A stretch of 64,000 bases of DNA, taken from IMG/VR virus record IMGVR_UViG_3300047319_000532, one strand, 5' to 3'. The translations under genes and the position numbers were made by a program. This stretch comes from a virus. Shown here piece by piece: positions 2,358-26,400 of this stretch (its first letter is position 1; each line of letters begins with the position of its first letter). The notes below the pieces were generated by a model that saw only the letters and a list, made by a program, of their open reading frames with translations, had not been told where the DNA came from and made no database searches.

Positions 2358-2949
2358 TCGTTTCCTGAAGCTCGAGAAAAAGAAACAGCGGCGCGCCGAG
2401 CGTGAGATTGAGCTGGCTGGCCGTATCAGGGCTCTGCCAGAGCGAAGGTTTGGCGTGATCTATGCGGATCCGCCGTGGTCTTTCGAGACGTGGTCGGAGA
2501 ACGGCAACGATCGCGGCGCGGGCAATCACTATGCGACCAGCGCGCTCGACGTGATTTGCGATCTGAAGGTGCAGAACATTGCGGCCAAGGACTGCGTGCT
2601 GTTCCTGTGGGCGACCGCGCCCATGCTGATGGAGGCGATATGCGTGATGGAGTGCTGGGGCTTCGCCTACAAGACGCACACGGTCTGGCACAAGGCGCGC
2701 ATCGGCACCGGCTACTGGTTCCGCAGCCAACATGAACTGCTGCTGGTCGGCACGCGCGGCGACATTCCTGCGCCAGCCATGGGCACGCAGCACCCGTCGG
2801 TGCGCTGGCGTCCGGTCGGCGAGCACAGCGAGAAGCCTGAAATCTTTCACGAAATGATCGAAGACTATTTTCCAAACCTGCCCAAAATCGAGCTGTTTGC
2901 GAACACGTGGCGACCCGGCTGGACGACATGGGGCGCAGGCCATGACTGA
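2344..2949 (+). CDS. MT-A70 family DNA N6-adenine methyltransferase
   Basis: ATG 2344 inside track ORF 2080..2949. Catalytic DPPW motif (VIYADPPWSFETWS) and downstream LFLWAT / GYWFRSQHELLLVGTRG blocks typical of MT-A70. Confidence 0.85.
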   Translation: MIPLDRFLKLEKKKQRRAEREIELAGRIRALPERRFGVIYADPPWSFETWSENGNDRGAGNHYATSALDVICDLKVQNIAAKDCVLFLWATAPMLMEAICVMECWGFAYKTHTVWHKARIGTGYWFRSQHELLLVGTRGDIPAPAMGTQHPSVRWRPVGEHSEKPEIFHEMIEDYFPNLPKIELFANTWRPGWTTWGAGHD

Positions 2950-3795: not shown

Positions 3796-5741
3796 GAAAG
3801 CTTTTGATCGACGTCGAAACGCGGTCCCGGGTGGATCTGAAGGCTGCAGGCGCGCGTCGCTACGCCGCGGATCCATCGACCCAGATCACGACCGCGTGTT
3901 GGAAGTGGGCTCCCGAGCCGGTGGTGCACGACTGCTGCAACGTGCGCGGCCTCGAGCATCTGGGCCGCGATCGAATCAGCGACTTCAAGCTGGCGCTCGA
4001 GCAGGCCGATCACATCGTGGCGCATCACATCAATTTCGACGCCAACGTCATCATGTCCACCATGGGCCCCTGTGGGCTGCATTTGAACAAGCTGGACTGC
4101 ACCATGGCCCGGGCCCAGCGCATGAGCCTGCCGGGCGGCCTCGACGAGCTGTGCATGGCTCTGGGCAAGCCCGGCAAGAGCATGGACGGCCACCGCCTTG
4201 TCATGGCCACCTGCAAGCCTAAAAAGGATGGCACCTTTAACGAGGATCCGGCGATCTTCACCCAGCTGCTGGCCTACAACGTGCAGGACGTTTACTGCCT
4301 CCAGAGCGTCGATGAACTGCTGCCGCCGCTGCCAGCAGACGAGCTGGAAATCTGGCGTCGCACATGGCGCAAGAACGCTCATGGCCTGCCGCTTGACCTG
4401 CACCTGCTCGAGGCGGTGGCGGCCCGGCGCGACGACATTGAAAAGCAGCTGGCCAAGGATCTGCGTGACTTGACCAAAGGCGCGGCGGCGACGATCACCC
4501 AGCGCGCCAAGCTTCAGACGTGGTTCAGGGAAAACAACGTCAACATCCCCAACCTGCAGCGGGCGACGATCGAGGAGTGGCTCACCCACGACGGCCTGCC
4601 CTACAACGTCTATGCGGTCCTGCAGCGGCTTTTTGATTCGGGTGGATCCGCGCCAACTAAGGCGCAGGCGCTGCTCGATCGACACGTCTGGGGATTCTTT
4701 CAGGACGCGACCCGCTACTTTGGAGCGCGGTCTGGCCGCGGCACTTCCGAAGGCGTCAACACCTTCAACATCGCCCGGCCTTCTGGTCTTGGAAAGTTTA
4801 CGCCAGCACAACTCATCGAGCTGCTGAAAAACATGCCAGATCATGAGTTTAACAACACCCAACTGTCAGATGTGCTGCGCGGCGGCATTGTGGCCACGCC
4901 CGGCCATGCCGTGATCGACGTCGATCTTTCCAACATCGAGCTGCGCCTGTCGCTATGGTTCGCCGGTGACAAAGAGAAGCTGGACCTGCTGGCGCAGGAT
5001 AAAGACCTGTACGCCAAGACCGCGGGCTCGGCCATGGGCATCCCGAATCTGACCAAGACGAGCCATCCCAAAGAACGTCAAGCCTATAAGAAGGTCGTTT
5101 TGTCGGGAGGTTATCAGATTGGCGTCGATCGCCTGTTTGCGGCATTTAAGGCCGATCGCGATTTGCCTTTTGAATACCGCAACGAGCTGACCTTGGCCAA
5201 CGTGGCTGCAATCCATGCCGGTTACCGCGACGAGAACGTGCCGCTGCAAATGACGTGGAAGGGGCTCGACGAGGCGGCCCGCAATTCGCTCTACTATCCC
5301 GGCGTCAAGGTGCCCGTCTGCGACGGCAAGCTGGTGTTCTATTTCCGCAAGGACATTGACCAGCTCGAGCTGCACCTGCCCTCTGGCCGGGTCATCCCTC
5401 ACTACCGGCCCCGCATCAACGAAGACGGCGAGCTGACCTTCTGGCGGGCCCGCTACGGGCGCATGCTGGAGAGCCGCACCTTCGGCGGCGCGTGGCTCGA
5501 GATTGCCTGCCAGTCATCCGCGCGCGACATCCTGACCCGCGTCGAAGGGGCGATCGAGGCTGAAATGCCTGACGTGCGCCTGCTGCTCGATATTTATGAT
5601 TCGGTGGTGGCGCTGGCTCCAATCCCGGTCGCCGAAAAGCGCATGAACCAGATGCTGGACATCATGCGCCGCCCGGTGCCATGGGCCCCCGGCCTGCCGC
5701 TTAATGGCGAAGGCTACTTTGCAGAGAGGATGAAAAAATGA
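3792..5741 (+). CDS. family A DNA polymerase with N-terminal 3'-5' exonuclease domain
   Basis: GTG start overlapping the previous stop. Exo I motif LLIDVETRS; PolA motif A DVDLSNIELRL; motif B RQAYKKVVLSGGYQIG; motif C-like LLDIYDSVV. Confidence 0.9.
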   Translation: MRKLLIDVETRSRVDLKAAGARRYAADPSTQITTACWKWAPEPVVHDCCNVRGLEHLGRDRISDFKLALEQADHIVAHHINFDANVIMSTMGPCGLHLNKLDCTMARAQRMSLPGGLDELCMALGKPGKSMDGHRLVMATCKPKKDGTFNEDPAIFTQLLAYNVQDVYCLQSVDELLPPLPADELEIWRRTWRKNAHGLPLDLHLLEAVAARRDDIEKQLAKDLRDLTKGAAATITQRAKLQTWFRENNVNIPNLQRATIEEWLTHDGLPYNVYAVLQRLFDSGGSAPTKAQALLDRHVWGFFQDATRYFGARSGRGTSEGVNTFNIARPSGLGKFTPAQLIELLKNMPDHEFNNTQLSDVLRGGIVATPGHAVIDVDLSNIELRLSLWFAGDKEKLDLLAQDKDLYAKTAGSAMGIPNLTKTSHPKERQAYKKVVLSGGYQIGVDRLFAAFKADRDLPFEYRNELTLANVAAIHAGYRDENVPLQMTWKGLDEAARNSLYYPGVKVPVCDGKLVFYFRKDIDQLELHLPSGRVIPHYRPRINEDGELTFWRARYGRMLESRTFGGAWLEIACQSSARDILTRVEGAIEAEMPDVRLLLDIYDSVVALAPIPVAEKRMNQMLDIMRRPVPWAPGLPLNGEGYFAERMKK

Positions 5742-5974
5742 GGATTGTCTTGAGAAACCGCCCGGACGCGCTTGTGATCGAAGGTGTGGAGTTTTCCGAT
5801 CGGGAGGCGTTCGAAAAGTGGCGGAGGCAGGTCAACAAGGCGGCCAGTGTCCTGTGGCCGCCGACGCCGAAGAAAGTGAAAAATGAGCAGGCTCTAAAAG
5901 CCCCTCAAAGAATTTTTGACGCCCCTGTTCAGATGCGTCCCTTGCGCCGGGATCTGCCTCCGCTGCAGGACTGA
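5738..5974 (+). CDS. hypothetical protein
   Basis: 78-aa ORF, ATGA overlap with the polymerase stop. Confidence 0.5.
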   Translation: MRIVLRNRPDALVIEGVEFSDREAFEKWRRQVNKAASVLWPPTPKKVKNEQALKAPQRIFDAPVQMRPLRRDLPPLQD

Positions 5975-6003
5975 TTATTTTTGCAAAAATTACAAATTGG
6001 TGT

Positions 6004-6040
6004 TTGACAACGTAATACGGCTGTCGTAGTGTCTGGACAT
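6004..6040 (+). promoter_or_regulatory. sigma70-like promoter, conserved class I element
   Basis: TTGACA(6004-6009)-17 bp-TAGTGT(6027-6032), with an AT-rich stretch upstream. The 37-nt element TTGACAACGTAATACGGCTGTCGTAGTGTCTGGACAT recurs at 8433 (+) and 58078 (-). Confidence 0.6.
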
Positions 6041-6084
6041 GGCGGAAGGCAAACGGGCCCAACGCACCGAAGGAGAAACCGGAC

Positions 6085-6405
6085 ATGACCATCAACACTC
6101 TCGCCGACCGCTACGCCGCCGCCAAGAAAGTCCTCGACGATCAGGAAGCCATCGTCAAGGGCCTGAAGGCCGAAATCGTCGCTCTCGGCGTCGAAGAGGT
6201 CGAAGGCGCTCGCAACTTCGTCATAGTCGGCCTCCGCGAGCGCAACACGCTCGACACCAAGGCGGTCCTCGCCAAGCTGGGCGCGCTGTGGGTCAAGGCT
6301 AACACCAAGTCCACCGTTTACGAAAACCTCACCATCAAGGCCAAGCCGGTCAAAAAGCTGGTTGGCGAGGCGATCGAGGAGCTGCAGCAGGCCGCCGGGT
6401 TCTAA
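6085..6405 (+). CDS. hypothetical protein
   Basis: 106 aa, RBS gaaggagaaaccggacATG, first gene after the promoter at 6004. Confidence 0.65.
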   Translation: MTINTLADRYAAAKKVLDDQEAIVKGLKAEIVALGVEEVEGARNFVIVGLRERNTLDTKAVLAKLGALWVKANTKSTVYENLTIKAKPVKKLVGEAIEELQQAAGF

Positions 6406-6423
6406 GCTTCTGTCCCTCTGGAC

Positions 6424-6446
6424 CTGCCCCCTTGAGAAAGGGGCAG
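6424..6446 (+). terminator. GC hairpin without T-tract (weak terminator or attenuator)
   Basis: CTGCCCC(6424-6430) / GGGGCAG(6440-6446) with a 9-nt loop, directly after the 6405 stop. Confidence 0.3.
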
Positions 6447-6472
6447 ACCCGGAAGATCCGAAGGAGAAAATC

Positions 6473-6715
6473 ATGACACCCGCAAAATTCTACGCGGACC
6501 TGAACCCGCGCTACGTCGTCACCAACATCAAGGAGCGGCGCTGGCGCGTGTTCATCAGCTTCGACGTCAAGGGCATCACCAAGCGCGAGCGCCTGATCAA
6601 CATCGTCGAGGCCGCTGGCAGCACCTCCAACCGCCGCGTCGCCGAAAACAAGGCCAAGCTGCTGCAGGACGTCTTCGACGAGCTGAACGGCATCTTTGTC
6701 GAGGTGAAGGTATGA
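6473..6715 (+). CDS. hypothetical protein
   Basis: ATG 6473 with RBS gaaggagaaaatcATG inside track ORF 6362..6715. Confidence 0.65.
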   Translation: MTPAKFYADLNPRYVVTNIKERRWRVFISFDVKGITKRERLINIVEAAGSTSNRRVAENKAKLLQDVFDELNGIFVEVKV

Positions 6716-6915
6716 GCGCGCAGCTTGACGTCACCGTCGAAGACCACGGCACGATCTGGCTGTTCCGCCCGCTCACGCAGGCGGCCAAGGAGTGGATCGA
6801 CGACAATGTCACCGGCGGCGAGGATTGGTTCGCCGGGGCGCTCGCAGTCGAAGCCCGCTTTGTGCAGGCGCTGATCGAGGGCATGCAGCTCGACGGTCTG
6901 GAAGTGGGGAAATAG
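6712..6915 (+). CDS. hypothetical protein
   Basis: 67 aa, ATGA overlap with the previous gene. Confidence 0.6.
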   Translation: MSAQLDVTVEDHGTIWLFRPLTQAAKEWIDDNVTGGEDWFAGALAVEARFVQALIEGMQLDGLEVGK

Positions 6916-6917
6916 TC

Positions 6918-7484
6918 ATGGGCTGGCTTTACATGCAATCGCTGGGCGGCTTCAAGAGCCCCAAGGCGTACCTCGACAATCAATTCACCTGCGGCGGCGT
7001 CAACAAGGTGCTGAAGTCGGCCCTGTGCGGCATGCGGACCTATTACGCCGCGGTCCAACACGGCGAAGGCGAGGTCTTCGCGGTGGTCTGCCTTGTGCAA
7101 TACAACAAGCGCGCCAAGGACGGCTACGTCTTCGGCTACAAGGACATGGACGAGACCATGGGCCCTTGCGAGGCCGACTGCCCGGCGGCCATCCTCGATC
7201 TGCTGACGCCAACTGAGTCGGCCTACGCGATCGCGTGGCGCGAGCGGTGCCGCAAGCATCTCGATCGGCCCAAGACGAAGGTCGGCGACATCGTCGTGTT
7301 CGAAGCTCCCATCCGATTCTCCAATGGCGCTCTTCACGCAGCCTTCAAGCTGATTGCGCCGTGGTGGAATCAGAAGCTGGTGCGCTTGCAAGCGATCGAC
7401 GGCGGAGGCGGTCTATACCGAATCCCCAACTGGAAAAAGCGCAGTTTCAGGATTGTTGGAGAGAATGAGCATGCGAAAGTTTGA
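6918..7484 (+). CDS. conserved-looking phage protein, function unknown
   Basis: ATG 6918 inside track ORF 6792..7484. Contains the motif FGYKDMDETMGPCEADCPAAILDLLTP. Confidence 0.65.
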   Translation: MGWLYMQSLGGFKSPKAYLDNQFTCGGVNKVLKSALCGMRTYYAAVQHGEGEVFAVVCLVQYNKRAKDGYVFGYKDMDETMGPCEADCPAAILDLLTPTESAYAIAWRERCRKHLDRPKTKVGDIVVFEAPIRFSNGALHAAFKLIAPWWNQKLVRLQAIDGGGGLYRIPNWKKRSFRIVGENEHAKV

Positions 7485-10463: not shown

Positions 10464-11249
10464 ATGTCAACGATGCTTAACCTGCTCTTTGCAGGCGCAG
10501 CGACCTATTGTCTGCAGGAGGCAGGAGTGGCGGTTTACAAGGCCGAGCTGGTCAAAAAGATATTGCGCATGGCGGAGAGCGAGCACGACGGCGAGGCCGC
10601 CGCGGCAATGCGTAAACTGACAGCCATGGCGAAGGAGCAGGGCCACAACCTTGATGAGATGATGGCGCACGTCTACGGCAATGGTTCGGCCAGCGAAAGC
10701 TCGAGGCCCAGCGGCAGGTATCGGGATCCTTTCGAGGATCTGTTCCGGCAGGCCCGGCGCGCGCAGGCGGCGGCGGCAGAAGCCCGGCGCGAGCGTGAAG
10801 AGGCCGAGGCTCAGGCGCAGCGCGATCGGGAGCAACGGGCTCGAGAGCGCGAGGCGTCCAACCGGGCCGAGCGCCGGGCGGCGGAATCAGACGCGCGCCG
10901 GGCCCGCACCGGCGGCTTCAACCCGGGCGGCTTCAATCCGGGCGGCTTCAAATGGGATTCCAGCCCATGGGCGTTTCAGGGCGAGCCGCCGCCATGGGCC
11001 AACAAGGGCGAGAGCGCGGGCGGCAGGCGGTTTTTCGAGCCGTTGCTGATGTCGGTGCAGGAGATGGTCGATCTGTGGGGCATCGGGCCGCTGACGCCTT
11101 GGGAGCAAAGCTTCGTCACCGACATTTTGTCACGCGGCATGAACTACCGGACGACGCCTGCGCAGGATGACGTGTTGCGCAAGATCCATGAAAAGTACCA
11201 GCGGCACGCCACACGCAACGGCGACGAAAAAGGCTTCTGGGGGAGATAA
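10464..11249 (+). CDS. DUF2786-like protein with Arg/Glu coiled coil and GGFNPGG repeats
   Basis: KKILRMAESEHDGEAAAAMRKLTAMAKEQGHNL resembles the DUF2786 signature. Followed by an RE-rich helix, GGFNPGGFNPGGF and a C-terminal globular part. No SD sequence ahead of the ATG. Confidence 0.7.
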   Translation: MSTMLNLLFAGAATYCLQEAGVAVYKAELVKKILRMAESEHDGEAAAAMRKLTAMAKEQGHNLDEMMAHVYGNGSASESSRPSGRYRDPFEDLFRQARRAQAAAAEARREREEAEAQAQRDREQRAREREASNRAERRAAESDARRARTGGFNPGGFNPGGFKWDSSPWAFQGEPPPWANKGESAGGRRFFEPLLMSVQEMVDLWGIGPLTPWEQSFVTDILSRGMNYRTTPAQDDVLRKIHEKYQRHATRNGDEKGFWGR

Positions 11250-11315: not shown

Positions 11316-14312
11316 ATGAACATGGCCGATACGACAGGAAATTACAAGCCTTTTGACATTCCTCCGCCCGGATCTTCGTTAAACGCCCAGCTGGCGGCGC
11401 TTCAGCTGCTTGACAGGGGCTGGCAGGTCATCCCGCTGGTCGGCAAAGCCCCGAGGGCTCCGGGCTGGCAGGACGCCCCCGATCGGCTGGCCTTCCTCAA
11501 GGAGCACCTGCAGCCTGACGGCAATCTCGGCGTGGTCTGCGGCCATCCTACCGGCGGCTTCGGCGTCGATGGGCCGCTGTTCATGGTCGGGCTCGACATT
11601 GACTTCACCGACCTCGAGGCTGCGGTCGCAGCGCACAAGATGCTGACTGGCATGGCCTACCGCGTTGGCGCTTTCCCGAAATTCATGATCGCGGCGCAGG
11701 TGTCGGGCGGCGATTCCTACAGCATGGACTATGAATGGGTCAAAGACGACAAGTCGATCAAGCTGCAGATCCTTGGCCGTTCCGATCAGCAGGGCCCCAA
11801 GCAATTCGTCAACTGGGGCATGCACCCGGACACGCGCACGGCCTATCGGCACGAGAAGAACGCCGATGGCATGACGCTGTTCGACCTGCGCCCGAGCGAA
11901 TTGCCGATCGTGCATCTGGCCAGTTTCTACGCCGATTTGAACATCATTTTAGGCGCGCTGGGCTGGCGCTGGGTGATTAAGGCGACCAACGAGCCCGGCG
12001 AGGGCGAGTTTGCTGGCGACATTTCGCCGGAGATGATCCAGCGCGCCAAAAACCTGTTCAAGCGCAAGCTGGTCGATCTGGCGGCGCGCGCCGCTGGCAC
12101 CGGGCGCGGCGACGACACCCACAGGCTTGGCCTGCAGATCGGCATGCACATCAAGCGCGGCCTGCTGAGCCTTGACGAGTGCGTGGCGGAGCTGCAGGCG
12201 GCGATGCCCGACAATCCCAACGCATGGACGCGCGAATTTCAGCGCGGCGTGCACGCCTCCACCGGCGAGATGCTGAAGGCTGACGCAGCCCGGGAAGAGG
12301 CGAAGAGCAATATCGACTGGGAAAGCGCAGCCGCGGCGCAGGGCGTGGACTGGGAGGCGATCAAGACGAGGAGCATGGGCAATGGAGCCCCGCCGGGCGG
12401 CGGCGCTGGCGGGGCGTGTACACCGCCGCCCGGGCCGCGCAAGAGCGGCTACGAGCTGGCCCTCGACATGCTGCACGACAAGGTTGAGAAGAAAAACGTG
12501 CTGATGCACGGCGGCGACACCAGCATGGCGGCGATCGTGGCCGAGGCCGCCACTGCGGCGATGTGTCGGCGCGTGTTCCGCGGCGCGGCCAATGATGTGG
12601 TGCGCGTGCTGCCGTCGGCTGGCGCGCATGGTCTGGCGGCGCTGGTTGCGCCCGACGGCGATTTCAACCTTTCAGCTTTGCCCACACCCAATGTGCGCGA
12701 ATCCATCCCGACTGACGCAGGCTGCAAGCTGTTGATCAGCGACGCGGTGCAATGCTGGTCTGCAATTAATTCCCCCGTCCGTGACGGCAACACCAGCGCG
12801 GCGACGGTTTCCGAGGATGGCGACACCATCACGTGGCAGGAAACTAATCAACGCGGCGCGGTGGTGATGCTGGAGGCCAAGACCCACCAGTGGGCGTTGC
12901 GCGAGGGCTATAACATCGGGCGCGCCGCATGGCTCGACAATCGCGATGTGTGGATCCGCTGCGGCCCGCCCAAGGGCGACACCATGAAGGAGGCGATCTG
13001 CAATTTCCGGCTGGGCTCGGGCACGGTCGGCACGCCTCGCCTCAACAGCGTTTCGACGGCCCCATCCTTTGGCAGGGAAGGCCGCCTGCTGCTCGACGAT
13101 GGCGTGCTCGACGTGGGGCCCGGCGAAGTGGTTTTCACGGCGCTGGGGCCGCTGCGTGGCCGCGTGCACGTCAATGGCGACGCCGATGCGGCCAAGGCGC
13201 GGCTGCGGGCGTTCCTGAAGGCTTTCCCCTTCGTCGATGAGGTGTCGGAAGGCGTGGCGTTGTCGCTGCTGTTCACGCTGATGGCGCGCGGCGCTTTCCC
13301 CATCCCGCCGGGCTATGCGATCGACGCGCCGGAATATGGCGCAGGCAAGACCTATCTGGCGCTGGTCATGGCTGCGGTGGCAGGCATGGGCTACAATGTC
13401 ATCCCGTGCGGATCCGATGCAGGAACAGATGAAGAGTTGGTCAAGCGTTTCGAAACGGCGTTGATGACTGGCTCGAGCGGCATGCTGCTGCTTGACGACG
13501 TGCCCGGCGGCAAGATGCCGAACTTCTCCACGCTGCGCACCTACCTGTCGGCGACGACGCCGGAAATAAAGATCCGGCGCTTTGGCAAGAATGATGATCA
13601 GGTCACGGTCCGCATCGATCGCTCGACCTTGGTGGTGACGGGCAACGCGATCGACGTCAGCAAGGACATGATCCGCCGCCTGCTGCGCTGCTACCTGTCG
13701 CAGGGCGTGGCCAACGAGGAGACCGGCTGGACGACTGAAAAAGGGCGCGCAATCATTGAAGACGGCGTGTTCAAGGATCCAAATAAGTGGGCGCAGCTGC
13801 TGTCTGACGCGCTTACCATCCTCAAGCATAACTGGGACCACCGCCCCTGTCAGCTCACGCCTACGCAGAACTATGAGGGCTGGTCTCGCGTGGTGCGCGA
13901 GGCGGTCAAGTTTGCGCTTGGCGTCGATGTTGATGATTCACGTGAGGAAATGGCCGAATTTGATGACGATCGCCAGCAGTGGCAGGAAACCATGGCGCGT
14001 GTGTTTAGCATCAAGGGCGAGGCGGTGTTTACGACGGTTGATATTGCCGAGCTGGCCAAGGGCACAACTAGGTCATCGTCGTTTTCAGTCAGCGCGGCGT
14101 CAGCGCCAAAGCCGATCGACGAGCTGGCGGAGGAATTTGAATTTCACCGTGGTGGGCAGGCGAAGTTCGTAACACGGCTGGGTAATTTTCTCAAAACGCA
14201 CAAGGACAGAGCATTTCCAGTGGGCACTGACGCCATGCGCTTACGTCGCATGCCACACAAAACGAAAAACAGCAATGAGAAGACGCGCTGGCATTTTGTG
14301 AAGGTGCGCTGA
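11316..14312 (+). CDS. bifunctional primase-polymerase (Prim-Pol) / P-loop helicase
   Basis: N-terminal Prim-Pol signature LQLLDRGWQVIPLVGKAPRAPGWQD. Walker A EYGAGKTYLA and Walker B MLLLDDVPG in the C-terminal half. 998 aa. Confidence 0.9.
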   Translation: MNMADTTGNYKPFDIPPPGSSLNAQLAALQLLDRGWQVIPLVGKAPRAPGWQDAPDRLAFLKEHLQPDGNLGVVCGHPTGGFGVDGPLFMVGLDIDFTDLEAAVAAHKMLTGMAYRVGAFPKFMIAAQVSGGDSYSMDYEWVKDDKSIKLQILGRSDQQGPKQFVNWGMHPDTRTAYRHEKNADGMTLFDLRPSELPIVHLASFYADLNIILGALGWRWVIKATNEPGEGEFAGDISPEMIQRAKNLFKRKLVDLAARAAGTGRGDDTHRLGLQIGMHIKRGLLSLDECVAELQAAMPDNPNAWTREFQRGVHASTGEMLKADAAREEAKSNIDWESAAAAQGVDWEAIKTRSMGNGAPPGGGAGGACTPPPGPRKSGYELALDMLHDKVEKKNVLMHGGDTSMAAIVAEAATAAMCRRVFRGAANDVVRVLPSAGAHGLAALVAPDGDFNLSALPTPNVRESIPTDAGCKLLISDAVQCWSAINSPVRDGNTSAATVSEDGDTITWQETNQRGAVVMLEAKTHQWALREGYNIGRAAWLDNRDVWIRCGPPKGDTMKEAICNFRLGSGTVGTPRLNSVSTAPSFGREGRLLLDDGVLDVGPGEVVFTALGPLRGRVHVNGDADAAKARLRAFLKAFPFVDEVSEGVALSLLFTLMARGAFPIPPGYAIDAPEYGAGKTYLALVMAAVAGMGYNVIPCGSDAGTDEELVKRFETALMTGSSGMLLLDDVPGGKMPNFSTLRTYLSATTPEIKIRRFGKNDDQVTVRIDRSTLVVTGNAIDVSKDMIRRLLRCYLSQGVANEETGWTTEKGRAIIEDGVFKDPNKWAQLLSDALTILKHNWDHRPCQLTPTQNYEGWSRVVREAVKFALGVDVDDSREEMAEFDDDRQQWQETMARVFSIKGEAVFTTVDIAELAKGTTRSSSFSVSAASAPKPIDELAEEFEFHRGGQAKFVTRLGNFLKTHKDRAFPVGTDAMRLRRMPHKTKNSNEKTRWHFVKVR

Positions 14313-14592
14313 GTGCCTCTTAGGTGCCTCTTGTATGGTTTTTTGGCTGTGTCACTAGAACTTCTAGGCTTACAGCCTGTTTTACTAAGAGGCGTAAGAG
14401 GCACTAAGAGGCACTTTCTCCCTCAAGGGAAATAATGGTTGTGAATAATACAAAACGAGTACGTTCTCTATATGTACTATTTCACATGCTTTTTTTTACG
14501 GGGTGTAGGTGCCTCTTAATGCCTCTTATGCGCCTCTTCTTTTTCAGGCTGTGTGCTTAGAAGTTCTAAGGACACAGCCATGTAAGAGGCAC
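14313..14592. repeat. iteron/hairpin array, candidate replication origin
   Basis: 10-mer TAAGAGGCAC or its complement at 14313, 14324, 14386, 14395, 14405, 14509, 14519, 14530 and 14583. Two related 33-nt hairpins at 14345-14377 and 14547-14579. An AT-rich ~95-bp core at 14415-14508. Lies immediately downstream of the primase-helicase gene. Confidence 0.6.
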
Positions 14593-14695
14593 TTTCTGGT
14601 CTGCTACGGTTCAGCTGTGTATTCGGTTGGTTATTTTGCAGTTTTAACGCGCGCATGCAAGAAAGTCGTCTAGCGCATACAGAAAGGAGGGTGAA

Positions 14696-14854
14696 ATGGT
14701 GAAAAAGACTAAAAAGTCACGTAAGCTGGTGGTTCAGGACATGACTGTGGATAATATGACGGAGAGTATGAAGAAAGAACAGGCTGCTGGCTGGGATTAC
14801 AGCGTGCTGATCAACAACCCGATTTTGCCCAGTGTTTTTAAGATTGTGAAATGA
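14696..14854 (+). CDS. small low-GC hypothetical protein (52 aa)
   Basis: Hand-read ORF MVKKTKKSRKLVVQDMTVDNMTESMKKEQAAGWDYSVLINNPILPSVFKIVK with strong RBS aaaggagggtgaaATG. AT-rich composition. Confidence 0.5.
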   Translation: MVKKTKKSRKLVVQDMTVDNMTESMKKEQAAGWDYSVLINNPILPSVFKIVK

Positions 14855-14941: not shown

Positions 14942-16057
14942 TCAGGCGGCGACCAGATCGAGCAGCTTGCCCGCGGCGCGCTCGATCGAGACGCGATCGT
15001 CCTGCCACTGGACGCCCTTGGCGGCGGCGGTCAGGCCGGTCACCACATCCCACACCGATTCCATCGGGCGGCCCTCTTCAGCCTCGTGGGAAGCCTGCGC
15101 GCGGGCGATCAGGCTCGAGGTGAACTTGCGCGACTTCAGAAACTCCTCGACGTTGTCCACCTTCTTATTCTGCGCGGCGATCAGTTTGGCCTCGACCGGG
15201 CTGGCCGCGCTGTGGCGATAGGTCTCGAGGACCGGCAGCGCCTGCTCGAGCCAACGATCGGGAGCGCCCGAGGTGTGGCGGATGGCGATGCGGCTGACGT
15301 CCTGCGCGCCCCAGACGATGCGGTTGCAGCAGGCGTAATCGAACAAGAAGGCGGTGATTTCGAGGATGCCAGCGCCGACTTCCGAGTTGCGGACGAAGAA
15401 ACCACGAGCCAGCGAGCCCTGACGACCACCGCGGCGGTTCGGCAGCACGATGCGGTTTTCCTCGTCGGCGAGGAACACGAACATATCGCGATCGCCCGCA
15501 TAGAGCGTGGTGTTGGCCTTGGTCACGTCGATGCGCTTGCCAAACTCGCCCGGCACGCGCCAGTCGCCGTCGATGCCATTGCCGAAGTTGGCCTTGAGCG
15601 CATCGGCGATCGTGGTGTTCCACACGCGGCCATAGTTCGGGCCAGTGGCGGCGTCGAGCGAGAAGCCCTCGTCGCCGCGGCGGAGGAGCAGGCCGACGTC
15701 GGCGACGTCGCGGGTGACCTTGAGGCCGAAGTTGACGCAGTCAGCAGCCAAAGACGGGTGTAGGGTGCGAAGGTAGCCAGCAGGCGCGCCAGCGAGGTTG
15801 GCCAGCTGGCCGAAGGCGAAGTGGGTCGGCGCGGCGGCGTTGCCCTTCTCGCCGACGATGTGCAGGCCGTTGTCGCCGTCCGGCTCGCAGGTGATCGAGC
15901 GGCTCGAGACGACCTTGCCCGCCGAGCGGACGCGCTGGTTGTAGCAATGTTCAGCCAGATCGTTGAGGTTGACGAAGCGTTCGTCGTTCGGGCGCGAAGC
16001 CCACTGGCGGGAAGCGGCGGTCAGGGTGGAGGTGTTCGCGAGAGCCATGATTTTCAT
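14942..16057 (-). CDS. DUF932 (phage/plasmid-like protein, TIGR03299-type)
   Basis: 371 aa. Blocks YGRVWNTTIADAL, TLYAGDRDMFVFL, LARGFFVRNSEVG and FLFDYACCNRIVWG match my memory of the DUF932 family. Confidence 0.8.
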   Translation of the reverse strand: MKIMALANTSTLTAASRQWASRPNDERFVNLNDLAEHCYNQRVRSAGKVVSSRSITCEPDGDNGLHIVGEKGNAAAPTHFAFGQLANLAGAPAGYLRTLHPSLAADCVNFGLKVTRDVADVGLLLRRGDEGFSLDAATGPNYGRVWNTTIADALKANFGNGIDGDWRVPGEFGKRIDVTKANTTLYAGDRDMFVFLADEENRIVLPNRRGGRQGSLARGFFVRNSEVGAGILEITAFLFDYACCNRIVWGAQDVSRIAIRHTSGAPDRWLEQALPVLETYRHSAASPVEAKLIAAQNKKVDNVEEFLKSRKFTSSLIARAQASHEAEEGRPMESVWDVVTGLTAAAKGVQWQDDRVSIERAAGKLLDLVAA

Positions 16058-16099: not shown

Positions 16100-16128
16100 A
16101 CCTTAGAAGCTGCGTATTCGGCTGTCAA
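16100..16128 (-). promoter_or_regulatory. sigma70-like promoter (class II element) for the DUF932 gene
   Basis: Minus strand TTGACA(16128-16123)-17 bp-TAAGGT(16105-16100). Spacer GCCGAATACGCAGCTTC carries the shared CGnATACGC core. Confidence 0.55.
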
Positions 16129-16135
16129 TCTAATT

Positions 16136-16158
16136 CCACAGGATTTTAGATCCTGTGG
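16136..16158. promoter_or_regulatory. perfect 9-bp inverted repeat overlapping a DnaA box
   Basis: CCACAGGAT(16136-16144) TTTAG ATCCTGTGG(16150-16158), between the 16169 gene stop and the DUF932 promoter. Confidence 0.5.
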
Positions 16159-16162
16159 ATAA
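16154..16162 (-). promoter_or_regulatory. consensus DnaA box TTATCCACA
   Basis: Plus strand TGTGGATAA. It lies 25 bp upstream of the -35 at 16123-16128. Part of a 15-nt block CCTGTGGATAACTTT repeated at 16791-16805. Confidence 0.5.
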
Positions 16163-16168
16163 CTTTTT

Positions 16169-16465: not shown

Positions 16466-16708
16466 TCAGAAGCGGCTGCTGTCGATGCCGTGCTCAGCGG
16501 CGAGCGCCTTGCCTTCGGCGGTGAACTGGATCCAGACGCCATCATCATTGAAGGTCTTGATCAGGCCAGCCTGCTTGAGCTGGGTGAGGTTGCCGCGCTC
16601 TTCCTTGGAGCCGCCGACGTTGCCGCCGACCAGCGGCGTGCCGCTCCAGTTGTCGGCGTCATTGGCGTAGGCGAGGAAGACGCGAAGGGATTCGGTGGTG
16701 ATGGTCAT
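16466..16708 (-). CDS. hypothetical protein
   Basis: 80 aa, first gene of the leftward operon from the promoter at 16739-16767. Confidence 0.65.
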   Translation of the reverse strand: MTITTESLRVFLAYANDADNWSGTPLVGGNVGGSKEERGNLTQLKQAGLIKTFNDDGVWIQFTAEGKALAAEHGIDSSRF

Positions 16709-16738: not shown

Positions 16739-16767
16739 AACTTATCGACAGGCGCATACGCTGTCAA
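16739..16767 (-). promoter_or_regulatory. sigma70-like promoter (class II element)
   Basis: Minus strand TTGACA(16767-16762)-17 bp-TAAGTT(16744-16739). Spacer GCGTATGCGCCTGTCGA. Confidence 0.55.
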
Positions 16768-16792
16768 TCTAACTTTGTGAAAAATTAGAGCC

Positions 16793-16801
16793 TGTGGATA
16801 A
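16793..16801 (-). promoter_or_regulatory. consensus DnaA box TTATCCACA (second copy)
   Basis: Plus strand TGTGGATAA. Again 25 bp upstream of the leftward -35, and 11 bp from the rightward -35 at 16813. Confidence 0.5.
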
Positions 16802-16812
16802 CTTTCTCGCTG

Positions 16813-16841
16813 TTGACAGGCGCATACGCATGTCATAGGAT
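16813..16841 (+). promoter_or_regulatory. sigma70-like promoter (class II element), divergent from 16767
   Basis: TTGACA(16813-16818)-17 bp-TAGGAT(16836-16841). Spacer GGCGCATACGCATGTCA. Confidence 0.55.
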
Positions 16842-16871
16842 TGGGACAGGTTGAAGCGAAGGAGAACGCAG

Positions 16872-19016: not shown

Positions 19017-19547
19017 ATGGGCACACCTCCTCTCGTTTACCGCACGCCGCGCAAGGATCCCTGCGAATACAAACTGCCGTGGCGTGCGGTCTATTCGCCC
19101 TTCGTCGCCGAGCGAATCTGTGACGAAGTGGCCTCGGGCCGCACCCTCGACCGCATCGCCATCGAAGAGCCATGGGCCCCGAGCGCCCGCCAGATGCGCT
19201 ACTGGCTCAACGAGCACCCTGATTTCAAAGTCATCTATTACGACGCCATGCACATGCGGGCCGAAAAGGCGGCGCAGGAGATTCTCGAGGTGGCCGACGA
19301 CCTGACGGTCGATCCCGAAGACCGCAAGATCATGATCGCCGCCCGGCAGTGGCTGGCGGGCAAGCTCAACCCGCGGGACTGGGGCGAGCGCAAGATCCTC
19401 GAGCAGAACATCAACGCCACCGTCAAGGCGGTGCAGCAGCTCGACGTCAGCCATCTGAGCACGCCGGAGCTGCATGCGGCCCGGGCGGCTCTGGCTTCGA
19501 TCGTTGACGTGGTCGAGGGGAGCGACGAGGATGACGACACCGATTAA
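19017..19547 (+). CDS. terS: terminase small subunit
   Basis: ERICDEVASGRTLDRIA...QMRYWLNEHPDFKVIYYDAMHMRAEKAAQEILEVAD...RQWLAGKLNPRDWGE matches the TerS pattern I know from podophages. Sits just upstream of TerL. Confidence 0.7.
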   Translation: MGTPPLVYRTPRKDPCEYKLPWRAVYSPFVAERICDEVASGRTLDRIAIEEPWAPSARQMRYWLNEHPDFKVIYYDAMHMRAEKAAQEILEVADDLTVDPEDRKIMIAARQWLAGKLNPRDWGERKILEQNINATVKAVQQLDVSHLSTPELHAARAALASIVDVVEGSDEDDDTD

Positions 19548-19921: not shown

Positions 19922-20025
19922 CCATGACTGACGCCCTGTGGCCGGTGCTGGCTGTTATCGTGCTGTTCAGTATCGGCGTTGGGCTCGAGGCGGCATACCA
20001 TGCCATTAAGAAGGCCCTGAAGTGA
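19918..20025 (+). CDS. tiny membrane peptide (35 aa)
   Basis: Hand-read MTMTDALWPVLAVIVLFSIGVGLEAAYHAIKKALK. ATGA overlap upstream and GTGA overlap with the TerL start. Confidence 0.45.
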   Translation: MTMTDALWPVLAVIVLFSIGVGLEAAYHAIKKALK

Positions 20026-21650
20026 CCACAATCAGCCTGCCCAGAACGATCGACGCCCACGCCCTGAAGCGGTCGATCGACAAGGAGCTGTGCGAGCGCA
20101 GTCTGGCTGATTTTGTCAAGATGGCGTGGAAGCACATCGAGCCCGGGCAGGTCTATTTTCACAACTGGCACATTGATTTCATCTGCCAGCATCTCGAGGC
20201 GATCGAGCGCGAGGAGCGCGTCGATGACGAAGTCTACAATCGTTTATTGATCAACGTCCCGCCCGGCATGATGAAGTCGATGCTGGTCGGCGTGTTCTTT
20301 CCGGCATGGCTGTGGGGGCCGCGCAACAAGGCGCACCTGCGCATCCTCGCCGTCAGCCACAACATCGAGCTGGCTGAGCGCGACAACATGCGGATGCGCC
20401 GCCTGATCGAGAGCGAGTGGTATCAGGATCTGTGGGGCGATCGCGTCATCCTGACCAGCGACCAGAACGCCAAGCGGCGCTACGAGAACACCGCCACCGG
20501 CTGGCGCATGGCGGTCGCCGCGGGCGGCGTCACCGGCTGGCGCGCCGACATCGTGATCGTCGATGACCCCCATAGCGTCAAGGGCGGCGACAGCGACGCC
20601 GATCGCCAGACCGTCTGCACGTGGTTCCGCGAATCCCTGCCGACCCGCCTCAACCGGCCCGACTCCAGCGCCATTATCGTGGTCATGCAGCGGGTGCACG
20701 AGAACGACGTCAGCGGCACCATCCTCGACGGCGACATGGGCTACGACCACATCATGCTGCCGATGCGCTTCGACCCCGACCGGGCCTGCGGGACCAGACT
20801 GGGCTACGAGGATCCGCGCCAGATCGACGGCGAGCTGCTGTTCCCGGCCCGCTTTCCGCTGGCGGTGGTCGATCGCGACGAGAAGATCCTCGGGCCCTAC
20901 GCCACCGCCGGGCAGATGCAGCAAGCGCCGACCCCTCGAGGCGGCGGCGTGGTCAAGGACGCCGACTGGCTGCTGTGGGTCCAGCCCGAGTACCCGCCGC
21001 TCGACTTTATTCTCGCCTCGATCGACACCGCCTACACCGAAAAGACCCAGAACGACTATAGCGCCATGACGGTGTGGGGCGTGTTCTCGGGCGAGCACGA
21101 CAAGATGACGACGCGCGGGGCCGATCGCTACGGCAAGCCGTTCCCGATGCCCAAGGGCGGCGGCCCTGAAGGCATGAGCAAGATCGTGCTGATGTTCGCA
21201 TGGCAGGACCGGCTGTCGATCCATGATCTGGTCAAACGGGTGGCCGAAACCTGCAAGTCGATGAAGGTCGATCGTCTGCTGATCGAGAGCAAGGCCAGCG
21301 GCATATCGGTGTCGCAGGAGCTGCGCCGCCTCTACGCGCATGAGCCATGGGCGGTCCACCTCATCAACCCGGGCAATCAGGACAAGCTGTCGCGGCTGCA
21401 CAGCGTCGAGCATTTCTTCGCCGAAGGTATGGTGTATGCGCCCAACAAATCATGGGCCGAGCTGGTGATCCGGCAGGTCGCCAGCTTTCCCAAGGCCAAG
21501 CACGATGATTTGACCGACACCGTCAGTCAGGCCATCCGCCACCTACGCGATTCCGGCCTGCTAATTCGCTCGGAAGAGCATCTGGCTGACCTTGCCAACG
21601 AGATGGATTTCAATAATGTTAAGCAGCCCCCGCCTCTGTATTCGGTTTGA
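20022..21650 (+). CDS. terL: terminase large subunit
   Basis: 542 aa. ATPase Walker A-like VPPGMMKS, Walker B IVIVDDPH and a C-terminal nuclease-type region (ASIDTAYT...KHDDLTDT). Confidence 0.9.
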   Translation: MTTISLPRTIDAHALKRSIDKELCERSLADFVKMAWKHIEPGQVYFHNWHIDFICQHLEAIEREERVDDEVYNRLLINVPPGMMKSMLVGVFFPAWLWGPRNKAHLRILAVSHNIELAERDNMRMRRLIESEWYQDLWGDRVILTSDQNAKRRYENTATGWRMAVAAGGVTGWRADIVIVDDPHSVKGGDSDADRQTVCTWFRESLPTRLNRPDSSAIIVVMQRVHENDVSGTILDGDMGYDHIMLPMRFDPDRACGTRLGYEDPRQIDGELLFPARFPLAVVDRDEKILGPYATAGQMQQAPTPRGGGVVKDADWLLWVQPEYPPLDFILASIDTAYTEKTQNDYSAMTVWGVFSGEHDKMTTRGADRYGKPFPMPKGGGPEGMSKIVLMFAWQDRLSIHDLVKRVAETCKSMKVDRLLIESKASGISVSQELRRLYAHEPWAVHLINPGNQDKLSRLHSVEHFFAEGMVYAPNKSWAELVIRQVASFPKAKHDDLTDTVSQAIRHLRDSGLLIRSEEHLADLANEMDFNNVKQPPPLYSV

Positions 21651-23657: not shown

Positions 23658-23863
23658 TGATGAAAGCGCAGGCCACTGTCGATCGTTTCGTGTTTCCCAG
23701 CGGCATGCCGTCAAAGTCGATGTGGAAGGTCTATGTTTCGGACCCGTCACACGAGCACAGGCGCGACTACACCATCATCGCCGACGACGAAGACGCCGCG
23801 GCCAAGGAGGGATTGCGTCGTTTTCAGGCCGAACTGGACCCGGAGCCCCATCTGGACGTATAG
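23657..23863 (+). CDS. hypothetical protein
   Basis: ATG 23657 overlapping the previous stop, inside track ORF 23609..23863. Confidence 0.55.
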   Translation: MMKAQATVDRFVFPSGMPSKSMWKVYVSDPSHEHRRDYTIIADDEDAAAKEGLRRFQAELDPEPHLDV

Positions 23864-23892
23864 TCGGGCCAAACATCCCTCGAGGACGCGCC

Positions 23893-26400
23893 ATGCCGCT
23901 TGTGCCGGGACTGTCACCCTCTATCCGCGTCACCAACGAGGGAGTGCCCGGCGCGATCGCCCCCGGCCTCTCAATCAGGCACGACAACGAGAATTACGAA
24001 GGCGCGCCAGAAGTCGATAAATCCGGCGCGGTCATCAAGATCGAGCATGCCGATGGATCGGTCACTGTCTCCCTCGACGGCAACCCGCTGATCGGCGCGC
24101 CGGAAGACGAGAACGCAGGCTGGTTCGACAACCTAGCCGACAAGATCGAAGACAACGAGCTGGCGCGCATCGCCGACGACCTGCTGCGCGGCGTCGATGA
24201 CGACCTGCAGAGCCGCAGCGACTGGATCGAGGAGCGCGCCCAAGGCATCAAGCTGCTCGGGTTCAAGATCGAGCTGCCCAACGTGTCCGGCTCGACCGAC
24301 GGCGCTCCGGTCGAAGGCATGTCCAAGGTGCGGCACCCGCTGCTGCAGGAGGCCGTGCTGCGTTTTCAGGCCAACGCCCGCTCGGAAATGCTGCCGACCG
24401 ACGGCCCGGTCAAGATCCGCGACGACGGCAATCAGGGCAATATCCAGCAAGACACGGTGGCCAATGCGCTCCAGAAAGACCTCAACCACTATCTTACGGT
24501 CACCGCCACTGAATATTATCCCGACACGGATAAGATGTTTCTGCTGCTTGGATTCGGCGGCACCTCGTTCAAGAAAGTTTATAATTGTCCGCTACGAAAT
24601 CGGCCCGTGTCTGAATCGGTTGACGCCAACGACCTCATCGTCAACGACGCCGCCACCGACCTAGCCAACGCCAAGCGCGTCACCCATCGCATCCAGATGA
24701 AGCCGTCCACCGTCAAGCGCATGCAGATCATCGGCGCTTACCGCGACATCGATCTGGCGACGCCGCTCGAGCCCAAGACCGACGCGGCCAAGGAGGCGGC
24801 CAACAACCAGCAGGGCATCACGCCCAGCTCGATGCGCCCGGATGACCGCAACCGGGAAATCTACGAGTGCTATTGCGAGCTGGACATCAAGGGCTACGAA
24901 CACAAGCACAAGGGCAAAGTGTCCGGCCTCGAGGTGCCCTATTGCGTCACCATCGACGTGTCGTCGAAGCAAGTGCTGTCGGTCACCCGCAATTTTGACG
25001 AAGAGACGCGAAAATTGCCGGTCGCGCGCGAGAATTTCGTCAAATACACCTATGTGCCCGGGCTGGGCTTCTACGACCTCGGCCTGCTGCACATCCTTGG
25101 CAACACCACCAACGCAACGACGGCTGCATGGAGAGAAATGCTCGATGCTGGCATGTTCGCCAGTTTCCCCGGCTTCCTGATGGCAGACACGGGGGCTCGC
25201 CAGAACACCAATATCTTCCGCGTGCCGCCGGGCGGTGGCGCGTTGGTAAAGACCGGCGGGCTACCCATAAATCAGGCCATCATGCCCTTGCCTTACCAGC
25301 CGCCGAGCCCGGCGCTGATGCAGCTGATCGACAACATGGTGCAGACTGGCCAGCGTGTTGGCGGCACCGCCGAGATGCCGGTCGGCGAGGGCAAGGCCGA
25401 CATCCCGGTCGGCACTATCCTCGCCCTGATCGAGCAGGCGACCAAGGTGCTGAACGCGGTCCACAAGCGCATGCACGCCGCGCAGGCGCAAGAATTTCGC
25501 CTGATGGTCCGCTGTTTCAAGGAAAACCCCAAGGCGTTCTGGCGCGCCAACAAAAAGCCAGCCACGCAATGGGACGAGCAGACTTTCCTCGCCGCGCTCA
25601 ACAACAACGAGCTGACGCCGCAGGCCGACCCCAACACCTCGAGCTACGCCCAGCGCATCATGAAGATCATGGCGCTCAAGCAGCTGCAGCAGCAGAGCCC
25701 CGGGCTCTATGACCCGATCGCGATCGACACCGCGGCGGTGTCGGCGCTCGGCTTCACCAATCCGCAACAGTTCATGGCACCTCCGCAGGCGCAGGCCGCG
25801 CCGCCGCCCGAGCTGCTCAAGCAGCAGGCCGAGACGCAGGCCAAGCAGACGCAGGCGCAGGCCCAGATGATCAAGGCGCAGGCCGACGCCAAGGTGGCCG
25901 ACGCCAAGAGCCAGAGCCTGCTGGCGGAGGCGCAGGGGCAAGGGCTCGCCGGTGGCGGGCAGGTGGACACCGAAGTCGATCGCCACATGGCCGAAACCAA
26001 GCGCATGGAGGCCGAGACCGGCCAGACGGTCGCCGAACACAACATGACGATCGCGCAAGCCAAGGCGCAGGCCGAATTGCAGAACGCTGGGACGCGCGCC
26101 AAGGAGCTGCAGCTGAAGGTGGCGGGCACGCATATGGACGACGCCCACCACCAAGAGGAGCTGCAGGCCAAAGCCAAGGAAAACGCCGTCAATCTGGCCA
26201 AAGAAGTGCTGCAGACCAAGGCGGAAGACCACCGCACCATGGCGATCGAGGGCGCGGCCCACCAGCACGAGCGCGGCATGCAGGCTGAAGCCCACGCCCA
26301 CGAGCACGCGCTGGCCGACAAGGACAAGGAAAAGGCGATCGCGGTCGCCAGAGCCCGGCCAAAGCCTGCCGCCGCCAAGCCGAAAGGCAAAAAGCCATGA
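23893..26400 (+). CDS. portal protein with long Gln/Ala/Lys-rich C-terminal helix
   Basis: ATG 23893 inside track ORF 23722..26400, 835 aa. Assigned by position after TerL, size, and a C-terminal ~200-aa coiled helical region reminiscent of a P22-type portal barrel. Confidence 0.75.
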   Translation: MPLVPGLSPSIRVTNEGVPGAIAPGLSIRHDNENYEGAPEVDKSGAVIKIEHADGSVTVSLDGNPLIGAPEDENAGWFDNLADKIEDNELARIADDLLRGVDDDLQSRSDWIEERAQGIKLLGFKIELPNVSGSTDGAPVEGMSKVRHPLLQEAVLRFQANARSEMLPTDGPVKIRDDGNQGNIQQDTVANALQKDLNHYLTVTATEYYPDTDKMFLLLGFGGTSFKKVYNCPLRNRPVSESVDANDLIVNDAATDLANAKRVTHRIQMKPSTVKRMQIIGAYRDIDLATPLEPKTDAAKEAANNQQGITPSSMRPDDRNREIYECYCELDIKGYEHKHKGKVSGLEVPYCVTIDVSSKQVLSVTRNFDEETRKLPVARENFVKYTYVPGLGFYDLGLLHILGNTTNATTAAWREMLDAGMFASFPGFLMADTGARQNTNIFRVPPGGGALVKTGGLPINQAIMPLPYQPPSPALMQLIDNMVQTGQRVGGTAEMPVGEGKADIPVGTILALIEQATKVLNAVHKRMHAAQAQEFRLMVRCFKENPKAFWRANKKPATQWDEQTFLAALNNNELTPQADPNTSSYAQRIMKIMALKQLQQQSPGLYDPIAIDTAAVSALGFTNPQQFMAPPQAQAAPPPELLKQQAETQAKQTQAQAQMIKAQADAKVADAKSQSLLAEAQGQGLAGGGQVDTEVDRHMAETKRMEAETGQTVAEHNMTIAQAKAQAELQNAGTRAKELQLKVAGTHMDDAHHQEELQAKAKENAVNLAKEVLQTKAEDHRTMAIEGAAHQHERGMQAEAHAHEHALADKDKEKAIAVARARPKPAAAKPKGKKP

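Follow-up and report, generated by a model that had tools for sequence, protein, structure and literature searches.

A candidate iteron-type replication origin directly downstream of a phage primase-helicase gene

What is the role of a dense cluster of short repeats that starts at the very first nucleotide after the stop codon of a phage primase-helicase gene? The cluster occupies positions 14313-14592 of IMG/VR virus record IMGVR_UViG_3300047319_000532, a stretch of 64,000 nucleotides that was analysed as a whole (hereafter, the window) and represents all or a large part of a phage genome, with a G+C content of 61% and nearly all genes on the + strand. An earlier interpretation made from the letters alone (hereafter, the sequence-only reading) had taken the region for a replication origin built of iterons, hairpins and an AT-rich core. 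The follow-up described here supports that view by a comparison of five lineages, by the assignment of the adjacent gene product to the Prim-Pol and superfamily 3 (SF3)/D5-like helicase families, and by a layout similar to that of a characterised class of origins (PMC9371898). We consider it likely that 14313-14592 is a phage iteron-type replication origin, acted on in cis by the primase-helicase encoded immediately upstream. This reading builds on four elements that the analysis establishes, namely the architecture of the region, its significance, its conservation across five lineages with changing iterons, and the protein's fold class.

Architecture of the element

The TGA stop codon of the primase-helicase gene ends at 14312 and the first iteron begins at 14313, so that the immediate adjacency previously noted is exact. 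About ten copies of the repeat had been announced; the cluster is real, but the count is nine, and all nine copies that the sequence-only reading listed are present at their positions and in their orientations. Every copy contains AAGAGGC, and five are perfect versions of the 10-mer TAAGAGGCAC, with two others deviating by one mismatch and two by two. The complement copies start at 14313 (no mismatch), 14324 (one), 14509 (none), 14519 (one) and 14530 (two), and the direct copies at 14386 (two), 14395, 14405 and 14583 (none each).

This density is far beyond chance. Seven of the eight matches to the 10-mer with at most one mismatch in the window lie inside the 280 bp of the element, against 1.88 expected per 64 kb, and none of 100 shuffled sequences reached eight such matches. 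Likewise, nine of the 21 AAGAGGC heptamers of the window are found here, compared to an expectation of 0.05 per 280 bp taken from the density outside the element (Poisson P ~8e-18). The 12 remaining heptamers are scattered and close in number to the chance expectation for the whole window (9.1), so that there is no second iteron cluster in the window; a distant second site of the kind used by phage P4 is thus ruled out.

The iterons are organised around a 94-bp AT-rich core, towards which two tandem arrays of three copies point from either side (Table 1). This core agrees with the AT-rich stretch first proposed, and the lowest-GC 94 bp of the whole window (33%) are located here, at 14405-14498. 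A small dyad at its left edge (14415-14432, TTTCTCCC..GGGAAA) is conserved, in an alignment, with the closest relative of the locus, a metagenome contig designated L001. Beyond the inner arrays lie two 33-nt palindromes (P1 and P2), which correspond to the hairpins previously called and both fold significantly as single-stranded DNA, and then the outer iterons, which have the opposite orientation to the adjacent inner array.

A 15-nt direct repeat (TAAGAGGCACTTTCT) is present at 14405 and 14583. The description of the element as two similar units ~202 bp apart is correct; because each unit is itself palindromic, the same sequence can equally be described as one imperfect dyad of ~280 bp, centred near 14462, with one arm of 36 nt (86% complementary) and one of 31 nt (84%). 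The latter corresponds to the inner-right array, which forms a 31-nt inverted repeat (84% complementary) with 14392-14422. Folded as single-stranded DNA, the whole region reaches -73 kcal/mol (z -13). A known structured RNA family was considered and ruled out, since an Rfam scan returned no match at gathering score and only sub-threshold microRNA-precursor or small-RNA matches (20-29 bits, against cut-offs of 45-114).

Table 1. Coordinates of the element, its parts and neighbouring genes in the window
Feature	Position	Strand	Length	Remarks
DNA methyltransferase gene	2080-2949			
Family-A DNA polymerase gene	3792-5741			
Gene for conserved 261-aa protein	10464-11249			directly upstream of the primase-helicase gene
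Prim-Pol / SF3 (D5-like) helicase gene	11316-14312	+	998 aa	presumed self-loading initiator; Pfam, motifs, AlphaFold2, Foldseek
Outer-left iterons	14313-14333	-		two complement copies (14313-14322, 14324-14333), 11 bp apart; aligned L001 positions hold TGACCCCC twice
Palindrome P1	14345-14377		33 nt	GGCTGTGTCACTAGAACTTCTAGGCTTACAGCC, then TGTTTT; DNA fold -7.5 kcal/mol, z -3.7
Inner-left array	14386-14414	+		three direct copies (14386, 14395, 14405), spacing 9-10 bp, pointing into core
AT-rich core	14415-14508		94 bp	presumed DNA-unwinding element; 35% GC vs 61% in window
Inner-right array	14509-14539	-		three complement copies (14509, 14519, 14530), spacing 10-11 bp, pointing into core
Palindrome P2	14547-14579		33 nt	GGCTGTGTGCTTAGAAGTTCTAAGGACACAGCC; DNA fold -14.9 kcal/mol, z -7.4
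Outer-right iteron	14583-14592	+		one direct copy, then CACTTTCT as after inner-left array
Open reading frame with strong ribosome-binding site	14696-14854		52 aa	downstream of element
Small terminase gene	19017-19547			
Large terminase gene	20022-21650			
Portal gene	23722-26400			

Five lineages and their primase-helicases

Relatives of the locus are carried by L001, by eight IMG/VR contigs (L004-L011) that represent two near-identical variants of one lineage, and by two contigs of alphaproteobacterial metagenome-assembled genomes (L012 and L013). Their primase-helicases are 58% (L001), 40-45% (L004-L011) and, over the helicase part, 32% (L012 and L013) identical to that of the window. In all five lineages, repeats in both orientations surround an AT-rich stretch directly after the gene's stop codon, with the first iteron only 0-11 bp past it; the sequence of the repeat is different each time. 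The window uses AAGAGGCA (nine copies, with inner arrays at +84/94 and +198/208 bp after the stop), L001 uses GGGGGTCA (at least seven copies, as the contig ends inside the element; +78/88 and +205/215), L004-L011 use AGGGGTTT (11-12 copies in L004/L005; +106/115 and +210/219), L012 uses GCAGGACAT (11 copies; +99/108 and +237/246) and L013 uses ATGGCGCG (seven copies in both orientations around the AT-rich stretch, with less regular spacing). The four most regular lineages thus share tandem inner arrays with a spacing of 9-11 bp that face each other across a core of ~95-120 bp, the equivalents of the inner-left array being located 78-115 bp past the stop in L001, L004/L005 and L012; outside each inner array, at a distance of 35-60 bp, there is in every case an oppositely oriented iteron.

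The phages of the window, L001 and L004/L005 are related overall, as their large terminases are 63% identical and the gene for the 261-aa protein is syntenic. L012 and L013 have other surrounding genes, and the element is still attached to the primase-helicase gene, which is the sole gene linked to it in all five lineages. The sequence of the site changes while its geometry and gene linkage are kept; it therefore has the properties of a cis site that co-evolves with a specific DNA-binding protein. What five iterons on one geometry show is co-variation with the cognate initiator, at the level of sequence.

Three observations concern individual contigs of this set. IMGVR_UViG_3300046559_000446 (138,254 bp; L009 and L010) carries two primase-helicase and origin loci ~69 kb apart, which correspond to the two sequence variants of the other L004-L011 contigs; probably, two related genomes of ~69 kb have been joined end to end in a chimeric assembly. 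In L013, the primase-helicase relative (4990-7438) is split over at least two frames (open reading frames 4990-6819 and 6941-7438) and matched by tblastn in two pieces, which suggests either a frameshift or a fault in the assembly; the iterons that follow the gene are intact. The core of L012 contains two 20-bp direct repeats (7327-7372; AGTCCCCTAACTGTAGTCAC and AGCCTCCAAACTGTAGTCAC) that the other lineages lack; an additional factor may have its site there.

The two 33-nt palindromes have a narrower distribution than the iterons. P1 has a counterpart in L001 (3599-3631, then TTTTTTT), which is the one palindrome visible before that contig ends inside the element; P1 of the window, P2 and P1 of L001 are ~80% identical in sequence, and the iterons that adjoin them are unrelated. 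Paired changes that keep the dyad (position 1-33, G-C to A-T in L001; position 11-23, C-G to T-A in P2) are, across three sequences, only suggestive of its maintenance. The equivalent spacers of L004, L012 and L013 fold no better than shuffled sequence (z -1.2 to +0.5), so that stable hairpins are a feature of the window/L001 clade rather than of the whole design, and a search of IMG/VR with the conserved hairpin pattern gave no match. The arrangement had been called unusual by the sequence-only reading; this applies to the embedded stable palindromes, present in the window and its closest relative only, and not to the architecture overall. A sub-hairpin within the P1 region (14365-14379) was flagged as terminator-like and, because a T-run follows P1 in both phages, this palindrome may also terminate the primase-helicase transcript; P2 is followed by no T-run on either strand.

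Consistent with its position next to an origin candidate, the gene upstream of the element encodes a protein with the parts of a replication initiator. Pfam recognises a Prim-Pol domain (PF09250, residues 28-128, E 2e-7) and no other domain, and PHROGs assigns the protein to a "DNA primase" family, plus an unannotated family over residues 622-965; the translation contains Walker A (GAGKT), Walker B (LLLDD) and motif C (VVTGN) sequences. A full-length AlphaFold2 prediction from a two-sequence alignment (predicted local distance difference test score, pLDDT, 34) was discarded in favour of one for residues 540-998 that draws on 53 aligned sequences and has a pLDDT of 91.3 and a predicted template-modelling (TM) score of 0.86. 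The best Foldseek matches of this model in the PDB are African swine fever virus PrimPol, monkeypox virus E5/vaccinia D5, the C-terminal region of the NrS-1 protein and SaPI5 PriRep (7ola), all of which are primase-helicases with SF3 motors (E 5e-7 to 7e-5, probability 1.00, TM-scores 0.33-0.43); the modest TM-scores are expected because the matched chains are multi-domain. As modelled, the C-terminal half of the protein has an SF3/D5-like helicase fold, and by analogy with its characterised counterparts the protein is presumed to be of the self-loading initiator type.

At the sequence level, profile searches against PDB sequences gave only weak matches to AAA+ proteins (Vps4); the best homologue among 50,697 deposited phage records is 27% identical over a quarter of the protein, and no deposited phage matched the DNA of the primase-helicase and origin region in a search for near-identity. 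An HMMER scan of 1.84 billion representative proteins yielded 5,551 relatives, some 1,500 of them at E 1e-10 or better and only ~20 below E 1e-30. Related helicase modules occur in fusion with Prim-Pol, PriCT_2, Toprim, RepB_primase (in two of 53) and NrS-1-type domains. Despite its 5,551 relatives, the module (12933-14309) has no Pfam model. Single-protein searches with the locus in viral, genome and metagenome collections were mostly without relatives (word-indexed protein searches gave two proteins only, and a single metagenome scan two distant helicases only); L004-L011, L012 and L013 were recovered by profile-based searches, and alignments of the wider helicase family contained no stretch conserved enough for extending the search.

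Known origins and a proposed mechanism

Among known origins, the closest match is that of the Staphylococcus aureus pathogenicity islands (SaPIs), where ori lies immediately downstream of rep and consists of 6-12 iterons with an AT-rich centre and at least two oppositely pointing iterons on each side (PMC9371898). SaPI Rep is an SF3 helicase that binds ori by a C-terminal winged-helix domain and self-loads; in SaPI5 it carries a fused primase (PMC9371898). Judged by its sequence, the window element has every feature that marks a SaPI-type origin: it is located directly downstream of an open reading frame for an initiator-helicase, its nine iterons place three direct copies left and three complement copies right of a core with 35% GC, and its repeat is, as in SaPIs, specific to each element (five lineages, five iterons). 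The likeness extends to the protein, which shares the SF3 helicase fold and has SaPI5 PriRep among its structural matches. The two systems differ in that the window derives from a tailed phage of ~64 kb with a probably alphaproteobacterial host rather than from a satellite of Gram-positive phages, in the length of the iterons (8-10 bp, against 5-6 bp in SaPIs), and in the extra outer, oppositely oriented iterons and the two stable 33-bp palindromes that the window has between outer and inner copies; moreover, there is no detectable sequence similarity, the helicase part of the window protein being without a Pfam model.

A second likeness is to pRN1 and Bordetella phage BIP-1, in which a gene for a Prim-Pol/SF3 protein has a large stem-loop on its 3' side; the pRN1 stem-loop is needed for replication, and pRN1 has been described as lacking iterons (PMC4234260). 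The window shares with pRN1 ORF904 and BIP-1 the domain order (an archaeo-eukaryotic primase (AEP) Prim-Pol, an SF3 helicase and a C-terminal DNA-binding domain, the last predicted in the window), as well as a cis element just 3' of the gene that reads as a large dyad or stem-loop. It differs from pRN1 in that this is not a stem-loop of ~100 nt without iterons: the dyad of the window is built from iterons, and takes the appearance of a stem-loop because these lie in mirror arrangement. The iterons of SaPIs and the stem-loop of pRN1/BIP-1 are likely to be two views of one design.

An observation on Bordetella phage BPP-1 touches the same point. Its sequence (L015 3608-3711; AY029185 ~26607-26710) contains a 104-bp dyad in which two copies of TTGCCTCGT and two of ACGAGGCAA surround an AT-rich centre, ~470 bp past the 3' end of the Prim-Pol/helicase gene bbp29 and between bbp27 and bbp28. 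As an origin candidate for BPP-1, this dyad may be preferable to the stem-loop that PMC4234260 proposes. The repeat of BPP-1 and the iteron of the window have TGCCTC/GAGGCA in common; the Prim-Pol domain of the window protein is 28% identical to that of Bbp29, and the helicase parts cannot be aligned by BLASTP.

The alpha protein of phage P4 combines a Toprim-type primase, an SF3 helicase and a C-terminal origin-binding domain and binds short repeats that occur in both orientations; P4 also requires a second, distant iteron site, crr. A single polypeptide with primase, SF3 helicase and C-terminal domain, and short repeats in both orientations, are also found in the window, whose primase differs in being a Prim-Pol (AEP) rather than of the bacterial Toprim type, and which lacks a counterpart of crr.

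Finally, oriV of the IncQ plasmid RSF1010 combines iterons and an AT-rich segment with the hairpins ssiA and ssiB, which are primed by RepB' (PMC4234260 and PMC8567376). Iterons, an AT-rich stretch, two hairpin-forming inverted repeats and an AEP-like primase are common to both systems, whereas in RSF1010 the functions are divided among three separate proteins (RepC, RepA and RepB') instead of one polypeptide, the iterons are direct repeats on one side only, and the hairpins have no equivalent in three of the five lineages of the window's set. RSF1010 is the only precedent we can offer for origin hairpins as priming signals (PMC8567376).

Binding, melting, loading, priming and directionality at the window element we infer from these characterised analogues. 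The Prim-Pol/SF3 helicase would recognise the 8-10-bp iterons, most likely by a C-terminal winged-helix-like domain as do SaPI Rep, P4 alpha and pRN1 ORF904; the spacing of the tandem iterons by one helical turn would allow cooperative binding on one face of the DNA. Because the inner arrays face each other, two helicase assemblies would form in opposite orientation across the 94-bp AT-rich core. Upon melting of the latter, the SF3 rings would load themselves and the Prim-Pol domain would make the first primers, which the family-A DNA polymerase of the phage would extend, leading to bidirectional replication. The outer iterons and palindromes would probably aid assembly or melting by wrapping or cruciform extrusion, with P1 probably serving, in addition, as terminator of primase-helicase transcription.

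A more specific role for the palindromes is conceivable but rather doubtful: P1 and P2 could be strand-specific initiation signals, that is, hairpins extruded after core opening that offer defined priming sites to the Prim-Pol domain. By analogy, this would amount to a start like that at ssiA/ssiB of IncQ plasmids, in leading-strand mode and performed by a single polypeptide in a tailed phage, and it would explain why palindromes are conserved between two phages whose iterons have changed completely.

The design itself is already known and the element reveals no new principle, its clade-specific twist being the conserved palindromes. Its value lies in a precise pair of candidate origin and initiator for a phage group without a cultured relative and, as the most useful product, in a series, provided by nature, of five initiators from the same family that are combined with one origin geometry and five recognition sequences. 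Such a series should be useful for understanding how self-loading SF3 helicases read DNA, and for orthogonal replicons.

Alternative readings and neighbouring features

Several results weigh against the element being an origin read by its primase-helicase. The C-terminal ~90 residues fit a winged helix by the order of secondary-structure elements in the model alone (residues ~907-996 are modelled as helix-helix-helix-strand-strand-strand), and the comparison of per-domain identities does not single out the iteron-reading domain: the Prim-Pol and C-terminal domains both diverge between lineages with different iterons, with the helicase core being 83% identical between the window and L001. The two most distant relatives examined, L014 at 25% and the deposited phage TPWB-08 at 27% identity, have no iteron cluster after the gene; in TPWB-08, only 90 bp follow it. 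The comparison set is small, and related phages of a single group account for three of its five lineages. Cumulative GC skew, suggested as a check by the sequence-only reading, has no inflection at 14.4 kb, although it neither supports nor refutes an origin because nearly all genes of this phage are on one strand.

Could the region instead control transcription? Its iterons would then be operators for a lineage-specific regulator and its palindromes terminators or dimer-binding operators, with the replication operon (by autoregulation) or the small downstream gene as possible targets. The element is indeed situated between the rightward primase-helicase gene and a small open reading frame with a strong ribosome-binding site, a T-run follows P1 (strongly so in L001), and operators are likewise short repeats able to co-evolve with a repressor. 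We nevertheless regard this as unlikely: no sigma-70-like promoter was found within 14313-14695 at the thresholds of the scan, the small open reading frame is not conserved in L004/L005 whereas the element is, P2 lacks a T-run on both strands, and a terminator role of P1 is compatible with an origin, which also better fits 9-12 sites in two orientations around the most AT-rich stretch, always 3' of the primase-helicase gene.

An origin whose iterons are read by another protein, which then recruits the primase-helicase much as RepC recruits RepA and RepB' at IncQ oriV, also appears improbable. One candidate, besides a host factor, is the 261-aa protein, the gene for which is directly upstream of that for the primase-helicase in the window, L001 and L004/L005, a further point against direct reading by the latter; with an identity of 29-33%, this protein matches the iterons in its divergence, and the lack of a singled-out iteron-reading domain in the primase-helicase would also be expected. 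However, a tblastn comparison detected no 261-aa homologue next to the primase-helicase genes of L012 and L013, both of which have iterons, Pfam and PHROGs recognise no DNA-binding domain in this protein, and in the closest characterised systems it is the helicase itself that reads the iterons (PMC9371898; for P4 alpha, PMC4234260). Packaging (pac/cos) sites, genome ends, partition centromeres and phage attachment sites (attP) can all be built from short repeats in both orientations, and in L012 a terminase-like gene, judged from its Walker A motif, lies ~1 kb downstream. Yet the distance to the small terminase gene amounts to 4.5 kb in the window and 3.3 kb in L004, the primase-helicase gene being the constant neighbour; in long contigs the element has an internal position; and among the subset of open reading frames screened there is no integrase or ParA/ParB domain, making these functions very unlikely. 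There are no terminal repeats in the window, and a terminal repeat is thereby ruled out.

The origin candidate lies in a gap of 383 bp that separates the stop codon of the primase-helicase gene from the 52-aa open reading frame. Elsewhere in the window, tail genes can be recognised in addition to those of Table 1. For the large terminase, the closest deposited match comes from an uncultured spring-water phage (58% identity), followed by matches from Paracoccus, Roseobacter, Rhizobium and Erythrobacter phages, on account of which the host is probably an alphaproteobacterium. Gly/Phe/Pro/Asn-rich repeats (GGFNPGG-like) are encoded at 1659-1978 and 10911-10966, within a 406-aa open reading frame (777-1997) and the 261-aa protein, respectively.

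A DnaA-box scan gave one relaxed match in the core (TTATTCACA, 14440-14448, minus strand), of which no equivalent was seen by eye in the cores of L001 and L004. Downstream of the element, at a distance of 0.3-2.3 kb, there are three perfect DnaA boxes (TTATCCACA) on the minus strand (14746-14754, 16154-16162 and 16793-16801; 0.06 expected), with two relaxed matches nearby, including 16776-16784; five of the six relaxed matches of the window are within 2.4 kb downstream of the origin candidate. The boxes at 16154 and 16793 are part of a repeated element of ~45 bp (16118-16166 and 16762-16806) that by eye has the form GCTGTCAATCTAA..CCTGTGGATAACTTT and, on the minus strand, reads TTGACA-17 nt-TAAGGT or TAAGTT, which is promoter-like for the leftward genes 14942-16057 and 16466-16708. 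Also by eye, a perfect palindrome at 16137-16159 (CCACAGGAT-N5-ATCCTGTGG) is operator-like, and a rightward TTGACA-17 nt-TAGGAT is found at ~16814-16842. Closer to the element, 14611-14632 (CAGCTGTGTATTCGGTTGG) is similar to the spacer that the leftward promoter-like element has at 16110-16130 (GCTGCGTATTCGGCTGTCAA); by this resemblance it may be a degenerate leftward promoter that points into the origin candidate, and it was also flagged as terminator-like on the + strand.

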